This document shows positions 52,654 to 59,407 of a DNA stretch of 64,000 nt, piece after piece; positions within the stretch are counted from its first letter, which is position 1, and each line of letters begins with the position of its first letter. The notes under the pieces are model-generated. The model did no database searches. It saw only the letters and a program-made list of their open reading frames with translations, and was not told the origin of the DNA. The translations under genes and the position numbers were made by a program. This DNA comes from Alphaproteobacteria bacterium. GTDB lineage: Bacteria; Pseudomonadota; Alphaproteobacteria; UBA828. The stretch is from positions 2,528,001 to 2,592,000 of the forward strand of contig CBDCCI010000002.1 in the NCBI GenBank assembly GCA_965214705.1. The letters run 5' to 3'.

Positions 52654-52727
52654 GCGGGTGTAGCTCAATGGTAGAGCAGAAGCTTCCCAAGCTTACGACG
52701 AGGGTTCGATTCCCTTCACCCGCTCCA
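52654..52727 (+). tRNA. tRNA-Gly(CCC)
   Basis: GCGGGTG acceptor stem, TAGCTCAATGGTAGAGC D arm, TTCCCAA anticodon loop, GGTTCGATTCC T arm, encoded CCA. Confidence 0.97.
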
Positions 52728-52838: not shown

Positions 52839-54047
52839 ATGTCGGACCGCTCCCGCATACTCTTCATCAACGTTGGGCACGGGCTCGACCACCTGTTCCT
52901 GCTGCTCTACCCGACCGTGGTGCTCACCCTCGAAGGGGTGTTCGACCGTTCCTACGGCGAGCTGCTCTCGCTTGCCGTGCCCGGCTTCATCGCCTTCGCC
53001 GCCGGCACGCTGCCGGCCGGCTGGTTGGGGGACCGGTGGAGCAGGCCCGCGATGCTCGCGATCTTCTTCGTCGGCATCGGGGCCGCGTCCATTCTCACCG
53101 GCTTCGCCCGCACGCCCTTCGAGCTTGCGGTCGGGCTCACGCTGATCGGCCTCTTCGCCTCGATCTATCACCCGGTCGGCATCGCCATGCTCGTCGAGGG
53201 ACGCGAGAAGGTCGGCAAGCTGCTCGGGGTCAACGGAGTCGCGGGAAACTTCGGGCTGGCGGCGGCGGCGATCGTGGCTGCGTCGCTGAGCGATGCGATC
53301 AGCTGGCGTGCGGCGTTCTTCGTGCCGGGCGCGGGCTCGCTGGTCGTGGGGCTCTGGTTCATCGCGGTCTGCCGGCAGTGGCGCAACAGCGAGGCGGTTT
53401 CCTCCCGACCCTCCCTGGGCCGGGGGTGGGGCGGCCAGCCCTCGGGCACGCTGCTGCGGCTGGTGCTGGTGATCGGCATCGCGACGACGCTCACGGGGCT
53501 CACGTTCCAGACCACGACCATCGCGCTCCCCAAACTGTTCGACGAAGGGCTCACCGGGATAACCGACAGTGCCCTCGGTATCGGCGGGCTGGTCTCGGTG
53601 GTCATCGCCATCGCCGCCTTCGCCCAGATCGGAGTCGGCTGGCTGATCGACCGCTACCCGGCCAAGCCGGTCTGGATCGCGGTGCTGTTCGCCCAGGCGC
53701 CGCTGATCGCCGCCGCCGGTGTGCTCGCTGGCCACGGCCTGATCATCGTGGCGCTCGCGATGATGATGGTGGTGGTCGGCGAGATTCCGATCCAGGACGC
53801 GCTGGTCACGCGTTACACGAAGGAGAGCTGGCGGGCGCGGGTCTTTGGCGTCAAGTTCCTGCTGGGCCTCGGCGCGAGCGCGGTGGCGGCGCCGCTGGTC
53901 GCGGGCCTCCACGGTGTTTCCGGCGGCTTCCTCTGGCTCTTCGTCGGACTCGGCGGCTCGGCGGCGCTGGTCGCCATCATCGCCTTCTGGCTGCCGAGCA
54001 GCGACGGTGGCGCGCCGCAGCACGCGGTGGCCAAGGCCGGGGCCTGA
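52839..54047 (+). CDS. MFS transporter
   Basis: GHGLDH, GWLGDRWSR (motif A), YHPVG, about 12 hydrophobic segments. Confidence 0.9.
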   Translation: MSDRSRILFINVGHGLDHLFLLLYPTVVLTLEGVFDRSYGELLSLAVPGFIAFAAGTLPAGWLGDRWSRPAMLAIFFVGIGAASILTGFARTPFELAVGLTLIGLFASIYHPVGIAMLVEGREKVGKLLGVNGVAGNFGLAAAAIVAASLSDAISWRAAFFVPGAGSLVVGLWFIAVCRQWRNSEAVSSRPSLGRGWGGQPSGTLLRLVLVIGIATTLTGLTFQTTTIALPKLFDEGLTGITDSALGIGGLVSVVIAIAAFAQIGVGWLIDRYPAKPVWIAVLFAQAPLIAAAGVLAGHGLIIVALAMMMVVVGEIPIQDALVTRYTKESWRARVFGVKFLLGLGASAVAAPLVAGLHGVSGGFLWLFVGLGGSAALVAIIAFWLPSSDGGAPQHAVAKAGA

Positions 54048-54087
54048 GACGGCCTGCGCGTCGGCTCGTCGAGGCCGCGACATTTGG

Positions 54088-54116
54088 TTGACCACGCCCA
54101 CCGGTTTGTGTTTCAT
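54088..54116 (+). promoter_or_regulatory. predicted sigma70-type promoter
   Basis: TTGACC-N17-TTTCAT ending 15 nt before the riboswitch. Confidence 0.5.
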
Positions 54117-54131
54117 GCGCGCACAGGACGC

Positions 54132-54212
54132 GCTCATCCAGAGCGGTGGAGGGACAGGCCCTTCGAAGCCGCGGCAACCGCCAAGAGCGGTGCCAATGCC
54201 TGATCGATGAGT
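54132..54212 (+). ncRNA. SAM-I superfamily riboswitch aptamer lacking P4
   Basis: P1 CUCAUC/GAUGAG, J1/2 CAGAG, P2 kink-turn CGGUGGAGGG-ACAGG-CCCUUCGAAGCCG, P3 GGCAACCGC/GCGGUGCC, pseudoknot CAGG/CCUG. Confidence 0.88.
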
Positions 54213-54279
54213 TAGCCGGAGGCGGAACTCCGCTCTCGGCGCTCGTAGAGCGCGTAGGAGACGAGAGGAGTACCGCCAG

Positions 54280-54345
54280 ATGATGACTCTGTGCGCCCAA
54301 CCATTCGCCCCTCCGGGGGCCGCGTCCTGTTGCGTCTGTACCTAG
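54280..54345 (+). CDS. putative Cys-rich leader peptide MMTLCAQPFAPPGAASCCVCT
   Basis: GAGGAG RBS at 54265-54270, ATGATG start, 4 Cys (CCVC just before TAG). Confidence 0.6.
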   Translation: MMTLCAQPFAPPGAASCCVCT

Positions 54346-54472
54346 GCTACCGCTCGTAGCCGATCCCACCGGGTGAGACCGATGGAGACCTCGCGGTCCT
54401 CCAGGCCTCTGGCATCGCCGCCGACCGGGGCGGTGTCAACGCCCGACAACCATGCCCACAAGGAGAAGATTC

Positions 54473-55036
54473 ATGTCCGATACCAGCGAAACTCCCGGCC
54501 TTAACGGTGTCAACGTCGAGCACCTGCTCGGCGCCCGCAATATCCTGGGCGACCAGCCCGAAGCCGGCCAGTTCACGTGGCGCGTTACCAACGAGTGGCT
54601 CCACGGCACCCACAGCAAGACGCAAGTGGAAGGCTATTTCGGCCTCGGCCAGGAGAACGACCACAAGGCGAGCTACTCGTTCGAGTCCGATCATCCCCTG
54701 GTGTTCGCGGCCGAGGACAACGCCGCCACGCCGGTGGAAATCGTGCTCACGGGCCTCGCGAGCTGCCTGACCGCGGGCGTCGCCGCGGTCGCACAGGTGC
54801 GGGAGATCCAGCTGCGTTCGGTCAAGGCCACGGTCGAAGGCGACATGGACATCGCCGGCATCCTGGGCGCCGATCCCGAAATCCGGAACGGGTTCAGCAA
54901 TGTCAAGGTCACCTACGATATCGACGCCGACGCCACGCCCGACGAGATCCAGGCGCTGGTCGCCCAGTCGCAAAAACGCTCGGCGGTCTACGATATCCTG
55001 ACCAACCCGACGAACGTCACCGTCGAGGTCAAGTAA
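54473..55036 (+). CDS. OsmC family protein (single-Cys subfamily)
   Basis: NGVNV, DHP..F...D...TPVE, LASCLTAG, RNGF, RSAVYD; AAGGAG RBS. Confidence 0.88.
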   Translation: MSDTSETPGLNGVNVEHLLGARNILGDQPEAGQFTWRVTNEWLHGTHSKTQVEGYFGLGQENDHKASYSFESDHPLVFAAEDNAATPVEIVLTGLASCLTAGVAAVAQVREIQLRSVKATVEGDMDIAGILGADPEIRNGFSNVKVTYDIDADATPDEIQALVAQSQKRSAVYDILTNPTNVTVEVK

Positions 55037-55044
55037 CCGCCGTC

Positions 55045-56292
55045 ATGCAGACGACGACCGTCGTGGTCGGGGCCGGTCATGCCGGCCTCGCCGTGAGCCA
55101 TTGCCTCGCCGCGCGCGGCATCGATCACGTGGTGATCGAGCGCGGCGAGGTGGCTCACACGTGGCGGACGGAGCGCTGGGAGTCGCTCCGCCTGCTGACG
55201 CCGAACTGGCAGACGCAGGTGCCCGGCCTCGCCTACGACGGCGACGATCCCGACGGCTTCATGACCATGGCCGAGGTGGTGGCGTTCATCGAGCGCTACG
55301 CCCGGCTCGTGGACCCGCCGCTCGAGACCGGCACCACCGTCGAAGCCCTGACCAAGAACGGCGCCGGCTACGAGGTGGCGACCGACCGGGGCGTCTGGCG
55401 CTGCGCATGCGTGGTGCTCGCCTCCGGCGGCTTCAACGTTCCGAAGATTCCGGCGGTCGGGGCGGCGCTCTCCGGCACCATCGAGTCGGTGACGCCGATG
55501 GACTACACGCGGCCCTCGGACTTGCCGGAGGGCGGCGTGCTGGTGGTCGGCGCGTCCGCCACCGGTGTCCAGATCGCGGACGAGGTGCACCGCTCGGGCC
55601 GCCCCGTGACGATCGCGGTGGGCGAGCACGTGCGCATGCCGCGCACCTATCGCGGCAAGGACATCCTGTGGTGGATGGATCGCACCGGGCTGCACGACGA
55701 GCGCTACGACGAGGTGGACGACATCGTGCGCGCGCGCCGGGTTCCCTCGCCGCAGCTCGTGGGCACGCCGGAACGCTCCACGCTGAATCTCAACGACCTC
55801 ACCGATCAGGGGGTGCGCCTGGTGGGCCTGCTGGCCGGGTTCTCGGACGGCAAGGCGCAGTTCTCGGGCTCGCTCCGCAACAAGTGCAACCTGGCGGACC
55901 TGAAGCAGGGCCGGCTGCTCGACACCATCGACGAATGGGTCGACGAGAACGGGCTCGATGACGAATTCGAGTCGCCGCATCGTTTCGAGCCGACGCGGGT
56001 GGAGGAGTCGCCGCCGCTCACCCTCGACCTCGCCCGCGAGGGGATTCGGACGGTGATCTGGGCGACCGGATACGAGCCCGACCATTCCTGGGTCGATCTT
56101 CCCGTGTTCGACCGCAAGGGGCGGCTGCGCCATGACGGCGGCGTGGTGACGGAGGCGCCGGGCGTCTACCGCATCGGCCTCAACTTCCTGCGCCGGCGCA
56201 AGTCAAGCTTCATCCACGGCACCGCCGACGATGCCCGCGATCTCACCGACCATTTGGCCGCTCAGATCGGCGCGGACTCGGCCCGCCACTGA
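55045..56292 (+). CDS. flavin-containing monooxygenase / FAD-NAD(P) oxidoreductase
   Basis: VVGAGHAGL, WRTERWESLRLLTPNW, VVGASATGVQIA, IWATGY. Confidence 0.9.
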   Translation: MQTTTVVVGAGHAGLAVSHCLAARGIDHVVIERGEVAHTWRTERWESLRLLTPNWQTQVPGLAYDGDDPDGFMTMAEVVAFIERYARLVDPPLETGTTVEALTKNGAGYEVATDRGVWRCACVVLASGGFNVPKIPAVGAALSGTIESVTPMDYTRPSDLPEGGVLVVGASATGVQIADEVHRSGRPVTIAVGEHVRMPRTYRGKDILWWMDRTGLHDERYDEVDDIVRARRVPSPQLVGTPERSTLNLNDLTDQGVRLVGLLAGFSDGKAQFSGSLRNKCNLADLKQGRLLDTIDEWVDENGLDDEFESPHRFEPTRVEESPPLTLDLAREGIRTVIWATGYEPDHSWVDLPVFDRKGRLRHDGGVVTEAPGVYRIGLNFLRRRKSSFIHGTADDARDLTDHLAAQIGADSARH

Positions 56293-56318: not shown

Positions 56319-57017
56319 CTAACGATTGGCCGCCTTTGTGCGCTCCAGGTGCTTGAGCGCCTCGCGCCGGCTCAGGTCCGAAAGTTCTGGATGAGCTTTG
56401 ACGAAGGCGCGCACCCAGGCCGGATCGGTCTTGGAGTACTCGCGCAACGCCCAGCCGATGCCCTTGCGCAGGAAGAACTCCGCCTCGCCGATGGACGGCC
56501 GGATCGCGTCGGCCAGCAGCTCCGTGTCCGTTGCCCGCTTGGCCCGGAGCTGGGCGAGTATCGCGGTCCGCCGCTTCCAGATGTTGTCGTCCTTCGCCCA
56601 TTCGCTCAGTACGGCCTTCATCGGGCGAGGATGAGCGGCGAGCATGATCCCTACTCCACGACCGGCAATCGCGTCCACGTAGTCCCACCAGGCGCCGGTG
56701 ACCACCAGCTCCTCGATTAACGGAACTCTCGCCGGCTCCAGCCAGCGCGAATAGCGCCCGAACAGCAGTAGCTCGACCGCCGCGTAGCGCTCCTCGCGGT
56801 GGGCGGCGTTGCGCCACAGGTCGAGAATCGCCGCCTCCCAGGCGCGGGCGTCGGGTAGCGGGCGTGCCCTGAACACAGAAGTGGCGAGACGCCGGCATTG
56901 CGGCACGCCCACGCCGAAATAGGGCATGTCCGACTTCATGTATGCCTGTTGCTGCGGGGCTCTCGCCGGGTCGGCGGCGTCGCGCAAGGCGGCAATGACA
57001 GAGTCTCGAATGCTCAT
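56319..57017 (-). CDS. DNA alkylation repair protein (AlkD-like)
   Basis: YMKS..PYFGV, REERY, WWDYVD, EFFLRKGIGWALREY. Confidence 0.9.
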   Translation of the reverse strand: MSIRDSVIAALRDAADPARAPQQQAYMKSDMPYFGVGVPQCRRLATSVFRARPLPDARAWEAAILDLWRNAAHREERYAAVELLLFGRYSRWLEPARVPLIEELVVTGAWWDYVDAIAGRGVGIMLAAHPRPMKAVLSEWAKDDNIWKRRTAILAQLRAKRATDTELLADAIRPSIGEAEFFLRKGIGWALREYSKTDPAWVRAFVKAHPELSDLSRREALKHLERTKAANR

Positions 57018-57204: not shown

Positions 57205-59407
57205 CAGGGCGAATTTGTCCAAGCCTGATTTTTGAGTTCTGCGCTACGAGTTGACCTTGGGTCTGGTCAGCGCGCGCCAACCCTGCTATGGATTGAGGCG
57301 ACTGGATTCGCGGTGTTCTGCTGCGGATCGGCTTCGAGCAGGGGGACGGTTTCTACGGTGGATCTTTCCGAGGTCGATGTCGCTGCTGTCCGGCCGGAGG
57401 ACGAGGCCCGGTTCCGCGCGCTGATGGAGGGGCATCACTACCTGGGTGCGTCTGCGAAGGTGGGGGCGACGGCGTGGTACGTCGCCCATCGGCGCGGCGA
57501 GTGGCTGGCGCTGGCCGTGTTTTCGGCTGCGGCGCGCAAGTGCCGGGCGCGGGACGAGTGGATCGGCTGGGACTTCCGCACGCAGCACGGGCGGCTGCAT
57601 CTGATCGCGAACAACGCGCGCTTCCTGATCCTGCCGGGACGGGGTGTTCCGAACCTCGGCTCGCGGGTGCTGGGGCTTTGCGCGCGGCGCTTGGCGCGCG
57701 ACTGGCCGGCCCGCTTCGGCCACCCCGTGCTGATGCTGGAAACATTCGTGGACGCGGCGAGGTTCCGGGGCACGGTCTACCGGGCGGCTGGATGGCTGGC
57801 GGTCGGCCAGACCCGCGGCTTCCGGCGCCACCGCTCGGGCTATGTCGCCGGCTCGACGCCGAAGCTTGTGCTGCTGCGCCCCCTGGTTCCCGACGCCTGC
57901 CGCCGGCTGTCCGCTGCCGGGCTGGATCGGGAGTTGTGGAAGAAAGGAGTTCCGAGAACCATGATCAGCGCCGCTCAGCAAGAGTCGCTCTACGCCTACT
58001 TCAAGGACATCGACGACCCCCGCACGCGCAAGGGACGGCGGCATTCGCTGCCCAGCGTGCTCGCGCTTGCGAGTGGCGCGACGCTCTGCGGCATGCGAGG
58101 CTGGAAGGCCATGTCCGAGTGGGTCGACGATCTCGGCGAGAAGGCGCTGGCCCGCTTCGGCGTGCGGCTGCGCGACGGGGTGCGCCGGCCGCCTTCGATG
58201 TCGACCATCCGCAATGTGGTGATCCGGGTGGACCCGGACCAGTTGGACGAGGCGTTGCGCAAGTGGCAGGAGGCCCACGGCTCAGGCGACGCGGCGCTTG
58301 CCATCGACGGCAAGACCCTGAGGGGGGCCATCGACGAGGACGGGACCCAGGCTCATGTCATGAGCGCGGTCGGGCACGAGACCAAGGCCACGCTCGCCCA
58401 AAAAAACTTCTCCTGAAAGTCGGGGCCGACGAGGAGACAAAGCGCACCAACGAGATCGGCACCGTGACGGCGCTGGTGGACCTGATCCCGAACATCGCGG
58501 GCAAGACGGTCACGACGGACGCGCTGCTAACCCAGCGCAAGTTCGCCCGCTACCTGCTCGACCGGGGCGCGCACTTCATGTTCATCGTGAAAGGGAACCA
58601 GAAGACCATGCGGGACGATGTGACGCTGCTCTTCGAAGAGGCGCCGGAGCGTGAGCCTGACTTCGAGGAGGAGGCCGCGCTGTCGCACGGACGCATCGAG
58701 CAGCGGGCAATCTGGACGAGCACGGAGTTGAACGGCTTTCTCGACTTCCCGGGCGTCGGCCAGGTCTTCATGATCGAGCGCTCCCGCCAGGACAAGAAGA
58801 CCGGCGAGACCGGCACCGAGACCGCCTACGGGATCTCCAGCCACACGCCCGGCACGGCCAACGCGCAGAGCCTGCTCGCCCTCAACCGCGGCCACTGGTG
58901 CATCGAGAACAGCTCGCACCACTGCCTCGACTGGACCTGGGACGAGGACCGCAGCCGCATACGCACAGGCTTCGGCCCCGAGAACATGACCCGCCTGCGG
59001 CGCTTCGCCATCGGCCTGATCAAGGGCCGGGGGCTCGAGGTCGCCTCGACCGTGCGCAGGCTCGCCCGCAACGTCCGCGCCGTCCTCGACTTCCTGAAAA
59101 TGACCGGGAACACCCAGCCGAGGACCGCAAAGCGCGCCGCGCCGGCCTGAACCCCGGCGCCCGGCAAGCCGGGCGCAAAGATCGTACCTGCCCTCGCTCC
59201 CGACCACGCCGGTGGCGCGATCCATCATGTCGGGGCACCGCCAAATCGCGACGGCACCGCCCGCACCGCCCACACGGTAATGCCAGAACCCTCTGACCGA
59301 ACCGGATGCTCGGCCAGACCCCGCCGCAAACCCCGCAACAAAGCCGATCCGCACAACCCGTGGCCAGAACTCAACTGCCTACCAGCCGCTTGGACAAATT
59401 TGCCCTG
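57205..59407 (+). mobile_element. ISAs1 family IS carrying a DUF4338 (DruA-like) fused transposase (2203 bp)
   Basis: 20-bp IR CAGGGC(G/A)AATTTGTCCAAGC; 10-bp DR CGCTTGGAGG at 57195-57204 and 59408-59417. Confidence 0.94.
57358..59150 (+). CDS. DUF4338-ISAs1 transposase, two ORFs joined by a -1 frameshift at A7C (58400-58407)
   Basis: ORF1: HHYLG, RDEWIGW, NNARFLILP, ETFVD, GTVYRAAGW, then DPR..GRRH and IDGKTLRG; ORF2: TNEI, TDALLTQ, VKGNQ, HGRIE, RGHWCIEN, WDED. Confidence 0.88.

Follow-up and report, generated by a model that had tools for sequence, protein, structure and literature searches.

In the leader of Salmonella mgtA a Mg2+ riboswitch is combined with a proline-codon open reading frame (ORF), mgtL, in a control that involves Rho. 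In Mycobacterium tuberculosis the expression platforms of the B12 switches of ppe2 and metE are reported to act on a short upstream ORF (uORF), for ppe2 by termination-reinitiation (PMC11260477), and at the pe20 Mbox uORF translation governs the downstream gene together with Rho-dependent termination (PMC12810186). Polycysteine leaderless small ORFs are Cys-codon attenuators in mycobacteria (10.1101/834739), Cys leader peptides of Actinobacteria lack obvious terminators and were suggested to work through Rho (PMC1262725), and an ORF with tandem Cys codons upstream of cysS in Rhodobacterales, uORFC-8-2, was proposed as a leader (PMC8632094). Likewise, in 'Ca. Pelagibacter ubique' a SAM-V riboswitch is reported upstream of osmC, whose transcript is induced more than any other when sulfur is limiting (PMC5069961). 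Here we describe the leader of an osmC-like gene in a 64,000-nucleotide stretch (the window) of an alphaproteobacterial metagenome-assembled genome (MAG; assembly GCA_965214705.1, contig CBDCCI010000002.1, positions 2,528,001 to 2,592,000 of the forward strand), in which an S-adenosylmethionine (SAM) aptamer precedes a short Cys-containing uORF. We propose, at a probability of roughly 0.6, that this P4-less SAM-I riboswitch is a translational OFF switch on the leader ORF rather than on osmC directly. Coordinates are window positions, and features lie on the plus strand unless stated otherwise.

The aptamer (54131-54213) matches RF00162 over model positions 1-108 with 68.9 bits against a cut-off of 44.4, which bears out the SAM riboswitch that the initial annotation had placed in tandem with the uORF. 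Its P1 helix pairs CUCAUC (54133-54138) with GAUGAG (54206-54211), and its P2 region aligns with the SAM-I consensus. At the place of P4, between J3/4 and the 3' strand of P1, 17 consensus positions are deleted; the same deletion occurs in all relatives, whose aptamers score 64-74 bits with RF00162, and it defines a P4-less variant. By these matches the aptamer is present, and a response to SAM is to be expected from it. SAM-IV and SAM-I/IV riboswitches also have no P4 inside the junction and, like the window, carry a hairpin directly 3' of P1. Nevertheless, the SAM-I/IV (RF01725) and SAM-IV (RF00634) models gave no match to the locus at E<=10 in searches of its own genome, in each of which the first-look filter scored 150 candidates, and in the window the 3' hairpin is more likely a part of the expression platform because it overlaps the strand that pairs with the Shine-Dalgarno (SD) sequence. 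An Rfam search of 54100-54500 at E<=10 found nothing credible besides SAM, and the 15 distant osmC loci put to Rfam were confirmed as SAM in 15/15 cases, with SAM as the only match in their leaders.

The leader ORF (54280-54345; 21 codons and TAG) begins 66 nt after the aptamer end and stops 127 nt before osmC. Its SD region, GAGAGGAG (54263-54270), contains GAGGAG (54265-54270), which is followed by a 9-nt spacer (54271-54279) and by ATG ATG at 54280; the translation is MMTLCAQPFAPPGAASCCVCT, with Cys at codons 5 (54292), 17 (54328), 18 (54331) and 20 (54337) and TAG at 54343-54345, so that the ribosome-binding site (RBS), the paired start codons and the Cys codons near the stop are all where the initial annotation had them. 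The SD is predicted to be buried in a helix spanning 54221-54277, in which 54221-54225 pairs with 54273-54277, 54227-54231 with 54267-54271 and 54234-54238 with 54262-54266, with hairpin X (54239-54253; GCGCUC/GAGCGC) nested inside. This is the minimum free energy fold of 54214-54285 (-32.3 kcal/mol, z -2.60, with 2/200 shuffles equally stable). With 44 distinct leaders aligned by MAFFT without refinement, 85.2% of the cells of this SD-sequestering helix are paired versus 35-62% when the partners are slid, double-sided changes affect 10/21 pairs (9/10 in the SD-proximal helix), and the covariation score is reached by 0/500 shuffles; hairpin X is paired in 99.2% of cells, its loop ranging from 3 to 7 or more nt. 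On this comparative evidence the SD-sequestering helix is a genuine element of the platform. Furthermore, all 40 osmC leaders with the aptamer (40/40) have, 59-73 nt past its end, an SD-like purine-rich block and then an ATG. In sibling riboswitches, metH, metE, metX-like, PALP enzyme and homocysteine methyltransferase genes truly start at this platform position; 50/106 of the ORFs downstream of the siblings were submitted to Pfam. Sequence comparison shows the arrangement that defines a riboswitch-controlled uORF, namely a platform burying the RBS of a short ORF 5' of the main gene, and we consider it likely that the riboswitch gates the uORF.

An alternative pairing of the same region offers a candidate ON state. 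Hairpin V/W (54215-54240; GCCGG.GGCGG/CCGCU.UCGGC) competes with the SD-sequestering helix for the same 5' strand and would take up the anti-SD strand; 89.4% of its cells are paired versus 38-64% when slid, 3/10 pairs show double-sided changes, and in leader L043 (L numbers denote individual leaders) a single G-to-A change has its counterpart in each of the two alternative partners. The switch itself would be an anti-P1 pairing between the 5' flank of P1 (ACGCGCUC, 54128-54135) and 54248-54255, where the 3' arm of hairpin X runs on to 54255. The two arms are perfect 8-nt complements, and the alignments show little or no variation in either. With P1 enforced the ensemble energy of the window leader is -78.3 kcal/mol and with anti-P1 enforced -78.0 kcal/mol, while the unpaired probability of the SD rises from 0.12 to 0.49-0.54; across 81 distinct leaders it is 0.32 with P1 versus 0.53 with anti-P1, being more than 0.1 higher in 54 and lower in 6. 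We infer the following path. With SAM bound, P1 would hold, hairpin X and the helix 54221-54238/54262-54277 would form and the uORF SD would be buried; in the absence of SAM, the 5' flank of P1 would pair with the 3' arm of X, the anti-SD strand would fold into V/W and the uORF would be translated, and translation of the leader would in turn raise the expression of osmC and of the flavin oxidoreductase gene behind it. The initial annotation had placed riboswitch and uORF in series as two inputs. The tandem is real, in that the uORF start is kept in the genus and the platform pairs with its SD, but the relationship is hierarchical, with SAM gating initiation at the uORF.

It might be objected that the uORF is incidental, its GGAG serving just to pair with the platform or as a decoy, and that the operon is controlled by some other route, for instance Rho loading or RNA decay set directly by how the leader folds. 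The peptide indeed varies between lineages in sequence and in length (1 to 60 codons), chance open frames are common in GC-rich DNA, and in one Actinomycetota MAG (L071/L138) the regulated start is immediately followed by a stop (ATG TGA), giving a one-codon ORF 64 nt 5' of osmC. Moreover, variable sites in the genus number 6, 11 and 11 at codon positions 1, 2 and 3 (21 each), without a third-position bias. Yet among the 14 distinct leaders of the window's genus the uORF start is kept in 14/14 and the stop position in 12/14, and, L018 apart, the indels of the genus and of group C preserve the frame. The ATG at SD-like spacing in all 40 osmC leaders, the use of the homologous site as a real gene start in sibling riboswitches, the frame held in 55/55 listed members of a wider leader family despite N-terminal length changes, and the stop/start overlaps in group D and metH leaders (both taken up below) likewise speak against an incidental ORF, which we regard as quite unlikely. 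Within the genus, as far as the alignments tell, the ORF as such is conserved and the peptide is not.

A further possibility is that the uORF acts through its product, by an EF-P-dependent arrest at Pro-Pro-Gly or as a small Cys-rich protein that has a separate function. In the genus no variation is seen at codons 8 and 10-16 except for the third positions of Pro-11 and Pro-12; 12 genus members have A-P-P-G-A-A-S unchanged, both Pro codons varying synonymously, and L017 has P-P-P instead. These codons coincide with a hairpin within the uORF (54307-54320; GCCCC-UCCG-GGGGC, encoding A-P-P-G), and the ostensibly synonymous sites are its loop. In the 12 genus members the GCCCC/GGGGC stem stays the same while the loop differs; group B, which like group C is alignable to the window's leader, keeps the stem with a UUUC loop and thereby reads A-P-F-G, and L018 retains the hairpin while shifting the frame. 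Since the stem is kept while the loop varies, conservation at 54307-54320 is at least partly at the RNA level. The remainder of the peptide is variable and the uORF peptide has no Pfam match, and thus action through the peptide appears very improbable; Pro-Pro-Gly arrest was rejected as a principal explanation for these reasons.

Three hairpins that the initial annotation had marked between the uORF stop and the osmC RBS are present, namely GGCTAC (54345-54350)/GTAGCC (54356-54361), GGAGACC (54384-54390)/GGTCCTCC (54395-54402) and GGCATCGCC (54411-54419)/GGCGGTGTC (54429-54437), as is the AAGGAG (54460-54465) that follows them. The first, H3 (54345-54361; GGCUAC/GUAGCC), sits at the uORF stop and has its six pairs in 13-14/14 genus leaders, with one compensatory change in L016. 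H5 (54411-54437; GGCAUCGCC/GGCGGUGUC) has five consensus pairs, two of which are changed on both sides. RNAalifold additionally places a tentative long-range helix (54316-54400) in the consensus of the 14 genus leaders, in which GGGGCCGCG (54316-54324, codons 13-15) pairs with CGCGGUCCU (54392-54400); it surrounds H3 together with the stop and the Cys codons, could form in place of the GGAGACC/GGTCCTCC hairpin, and with one of its nine pairs changed on both sides is weakly indicated. In total this consensus has 34 pairs, four of them with compensatory changes. As 54280-54475 is no more stable than its shuffles (z -0.51; 58/200 shuffles fold equally well), it is conservation that speaks for the hairpins 3' of the uORF start.

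The main gene, osmC (54473-55036; PF02566, E 7.7e-18), has an RBS of its own (the AAGGAG at 54460-54465, with ATG at 54473) and orthologues of 82-99% identity in the genus. A gene for a flavin-dependent oxidoreductase or monooxygenase-like protein (55045-56292; PF13738 Pyr_redox_3, E 4.2e-23) begins 8 nt 3' of it, and the two probably form one operon. How uORF translation might reach this operon is suggested by sister lineages. The uORF stop overlaps the osmC ATG in 7/9 osmC leaders of group D (gaps -1 to -8). Ten metH-type leaders with a P4-less SAM-I aptamer (L113, L117, L128, L131, L155, L163, L167, L190, L205 and L223, of which L113 and L117 went through Pfam), drawn from the matches listed in a scan described below, have uORFs of 8-76 codons that end at the metH start; nine are ATGA/GTGA overlaps, and in L205 the stop lies 5 nt past the metH ATG. 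These overlaps suggest termination-reinitiation coupling, to judge from the arrangement; the short metH uORFs have 0-3 Cys codons and follow no consistent Cys rule. In the window the stop is 127 nt from osmC, which makes protection from Rho by a translating or pausing ribosome, as reported for the pe20 Mbox (PMC12810186), the least unlikely relay. The C/G ratio is 1.3-1.5 from the uORF onward, and we suppose that Rho polarity could operate here, with translation keeping Rho off the C-rich leader where sister lineages would rely on stop/start overlap. Translation of the uORF is itself presumed in this scheme, as is any effect of its Cys codons. On balance we think it somewhat probable that uORF translation matters for osmC in the window.

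Several points weigh against an OFF switch that works through the leader ORF. The anti-P1 pairing shows no covariation, because neither arm varies, and the OFF helix prevails in plain thermodynamic folds. When the 3' strand of P1 alone is forced open the SD is not freed (0.38 vs 0.41; higher in 50/80), so that the switch model requires the specific anti-P1 pairing. The covariation and enrichment statistics overstate the support, because related sequences are not independent. At the level of the ORF, changes are spread over the codon positions without the bias expected of a selected peptide, and since the invariant core codons 10-16 overlap the hairpin and the long-range helix they demonstrate no peptide-level selection. 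As for the relay, the osmC RBS stays 0.51-0.62 unpaired whether the ribosome masks the start, codons 17-20, the stop or the uORF in full, and as this RBS is strong and about half open under any ribosome cover, osmC translation could be independent of the uORF. The excess of C over G is modest, and a Rho site is not callable from sequence.

Upstream of the aptamer we place a putative promoter at 54088-54116 (TTGACC at 54088-54093, a 17-nt spacer and TTTCAT at 54111-54116), which would put the transcript start a few bases 5' of the aptamer; its TTGAC and a TGTG.TT.CAT block are kept in 16/16 aligned leaders. A promoter/terminator consensus scan of 53900-55200 returned 0 promoters and 0 terminators, and missed this promoter because its rule demands an A at position 2 of the -10 element. 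Contigs from four RNA libraries, which carry no information on level, strand or ends, cover the leader and uORF of relatives with 88-99% identity, in a version with Arg-Phe-Ser. They leave 53900-54087 uncovered and start at 54130-54136; these starts were discarded as a transcript start, two of the records running on into unrelated upstream sequence of other organisms, and one record shows what we take to be adapter letters just 5' of 54131. A pairing of GCGCACAG (54117-54124) with CUGUGCGC (uORF codons 4-6) was also dropped, its upstream arm not being kept in L011-L018; this arm probably lies 5' of the transcript start.

The Cys codons had led the initial annotation to a two-input model, with the operon on only when SAM and Cys-tRNA are both low. 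Spelled out for this leader, a ribosome would stall at codons 17-20 when charged tRNA-Cys is low and hold the leader open or block Rho, and full expression would require a shortage of SAM as well as of charged tRNA-Cys. From the base composition of the leader, the chance of at least four Cys in 20 codons is P about 0.0014, and that of three in the last five P about 0.00015. The codons lie within the long-range helix and just 5' of H3, and Cys-codon attenuators are established in mycobacteria (10.1101/834739, PMC1262725) and a cysS leader proposed in Rhodobacterales (PMC8632094). Codon 20 is Cys, always TGT, in 13/14 genus leaders and is the sole Cys codon kept, and codon 5 is Cys in 11/14 genus leaders and in 17/22 over groups A-C, where both TGC and TGT are used. 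Contrary to these points, the number of Cys codons in the 14 genus leaders is 4, 3, 3, 4, 4, 4, 2, 2, 3, 2, 1, 1, 3 and 2, falling to 2 in L011, L012 and L014 and to 1 in L015 and L016, and the swaps are non-synonymous, codon 17 being C/R/Q, codon 18 C/F/R and codon 19 any of seven residues. The homologous leaders had been expected to keep their Cys codons with synonymous variation; such conservation of regulatory codons among orthologous leaders, as befits an attenuator, was not found in the genus. At the homologous site Cys is absent from groups B and C. The ancestral state of codons 17 and 18 is ambiguous, being Arg-Phe in L011-L016, yet L017 has Cys at 17. Given the Cys counts in the genus, groups B and C and the Cys-poor Arg-Phe-Ser version of the RNA contigs, Cys-richness is a trait of the window's own subclade. 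Furthermore, a stall two codons 5' of the stop would mask nearly the same RNA as a terminating ribosome, the scan revealed no terminator, and a stalled ribosome is predicted to leave the osmC RBS as it is. We accordingly hold the two-input model to be unlikely, and a role of the Cys codons as a second input in the window to be doubtful, though under an OFF switch on the leader ORF a shortage of Cys-tRNA may still delay the ribosome at the remaining Cys codons.

The ancestry of the uORF gives the Cys codons a different context. A scan with the 3' part of the aptamer recovered at least 115 stretches, mostly from Acidimicrobiia MAGs, and the matches listed there together with group E define a family of Met/Cys leader peptides linked to the same aptamer type; all counts for this family refer to the matches listed. 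A shared architecture is seen in 55 leaders (57 motif matches, of which L018 and L049 are false). Their uORFs have 25-57 codons and include an S-R-V motif, the codons of which supply the 5' strand of a stem of 11-12 bp; the 3' strand of this stem lies directly past the uORF stop, the stop being at a median of 8 nt before it. The motif is in one frame in 55/55 leaders despite an N-terminal part of 7 to 26 codons. In a non-redundant set of 35 peptides (<70% mutual identity), the eight codons before S-R-V contain 62/280 Cys (22%) and 39/280 Met (14%), as against 9/454 and 10/454 (2%) in the remainder of the peptides and 35/490 TGY and 4/490 ATG in an off-frame control; at position -3, 25 peptides have Cys and 9 have Met (34/35 together). 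The stem is 90% canonical versus 41-45% when shifted, with compensatory changes at 7/13 positions, and no U-tract follows it in the leaders inspected. Pfam searches of 50 downstream ORFs, which pool type-iii leaders with others, gave OsmC in 24, Cys_Met_Meta_PP of the metY type in 7 and a rhodanese-SBP fusion in 1. Two side observations concern this set: in the Met/Cys block of the 35 loci (e.g. L123, L124, L114, L172 and L144) TGT outnumbers TGC by 45 to 17 although the genomes are GC-rich, and in L114 and L160 a stretch in the uORF tail is, by eye, complementary to the metY RBS.

A frame-locked Met/Cys block directly before a stem that a stalled ribosome could cover is, as read from the alignment, the geometry of a leader-peptide attenuator, and sensing of Cys in the wider family is plausible. 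The window leader shares the family's stop-region motif and lacks the S-R-V stem; on this comparison its uORF is a remodelled, derived member of the family. It would have descended from a widespread Met/Cys-rich attenuator, with the stem partner lost in the genus and the Cys codons left variable. The parent family's frame-locked block is a point in favor of the two-input model and the absence of the block-flanking stem from the window one against it. Of the Cys attenuation that had been proposed, what stands is the family's Met/Cys block beside a covarying stem; in the window itself neither a terminator nor a predicted ribosome-dependent unmasking of the RBS supports it. A more far-reaching proposal, which we offer only tentatively, is that the family is a composite sensor, mostly of Acidimicrobiia MAGs and probably transferred among sponge and marine bacteria. 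In it the P4-less SAM-I aptamer would license the uORF and the Met/Cys block before the 11-12 bp stem would read charged tRNA-Met and tRNA-Cys, creating a SAM AND sulfur-amino-acid gate before osmC, metY and rhodanese-type genes; the window uORF would be a functional member, with H3 and the long-range helices replacing the stem.

The distribution of the aptamer also points to mobility of the module. The osmC leader carries the only SAM-I match genome-wide. SAM-II is the usual class in Alphaproteobacteria, and as the other SAM sensor of this genome is a SAM-II (68.8 bits; contig C1:3955948-3956026, minus strand, outside the window), the SAM-I of the window is the odd one out. Every same-genus osmC locus with enough upstream sequence has the aptamer (15/15), and sister genera of the same family gave no Rfam match upstream of osmC. 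The MAGs that supply near-identical loci are labelled Alphaproteobacteria or Rhodospirillales, and several of them bear isolate names of a sponge type; the leader stretch was found in sponge metagenomes. The aptamer accompanies osmC in 24 more loci from Gammaproteobacteria, Immundisolibacterales, Rhodobacterales, Spongiisociaceae, other Alphaproteobacteria and Acidimicrobiia; of 80 osmC relatives about 30 have it by nhmmer, with a profile from one genus that divergent aptamers could escape. The module looks native to Acidimicrobiia-like lineages and acquired by the window's lineage.

In the window the leader is preceded by an MFS transporter gene (52839-54047) and, between this and a further upstream gene, by a tRNA-Gly (CCC) at 52654-52727. 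A DNA alkylation repair gene (56319-57017, minus strand; PF08713, E 6e-62) is convergent on the end of the osmC-oxidoreductase operon. Directly past this neighbour lies a split transposase-like gene (57232-59150), with a DruA-like domain and DDE_Tnp_1_assoc in one frame (57232-58413) and DDE_Tnp_1 continuing in another (58302-59147), a mobile element close to a module with the look of horizontal acquisition.

Riboswitches are usually read as acting on the next gene; in the more than 100 related leaders the regulated RBS is often that of a short ORF. The SAM class, and with it uncultured marine and sponge lineages, would join the few mycobacterial B12 and Mg2+ cases of uORF control. Should the Met/Cys block truly act as a sensor, a single leader would combine the SAM pool, as methyl donor, and the pools of charged tRNA for both sulfur amino acids in a two-input gate. 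The OsmC-like protein and the flavin oxidoreductase are at the same time placed in the SAM/sulfur regulon of several phyla, which echoes the induction of osmC in Pelagibacter.

Compared with the systems introduced at the outset, the window leader differs from mgtA in ligand and amino acid, and in that the mgtA ORF lies inside the alternative stems of the riboswitch, whereas the platform described here sequesters the RBS of the ORF. The ppe2 leader resembles the overlapping group D osmC and metH leaders in arrangement. The ligands in the ppe2 and pe20 cases are B12 and Mg2+; the window type has a predicted SAM-I switch in an alphaproteobacterial MAG, with an aptamer type found mainly in Acidimicrobiia MAGs, and its uORF family has a Met/Cys block and a covarying stem. 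Pelagibacter likewise has osmC in the SAM regulon of a marine alphaproteobacterium, but there SAM-V acts on the gene's own RBS and the part of the report used describes no leader ORF, while in the window SAM-I acts on a uORF. Like the window, the published Cys-codon leaders have a short ORF with Cys near its end 5' of sulfur-related genes, where stalling has been proposed or shown to remodel the RNA. They have no preceding riboswitch, those of mycobacteria start without a leader and contain Cys runs, and uORFC-8-2 has a terminator with a U run; the window uORF has an SD, a 5' leader of about 150 nt and a longest Cys run of 2, and no terminator appeared in the scan of 53900-55200. Its parent family mixes Met and Cys codons, unlike the published Cys-codon ORFs, and its host belongs to a sponge-type alphaproteobacterial MAG lineage and is not an actinobacterium. 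The initial annotation knew of no described tandem of SAM-I with a Cys attenuator, and a SAM riboswitch coupled to a uORF or to a Met/Cys leader peptide is not described in the literature searched, which comprised full texts, with subscription journals and supplements outside. Beside the known riboswitch-uORF and Cys-attenuator types the window leader is a variant in its own right.

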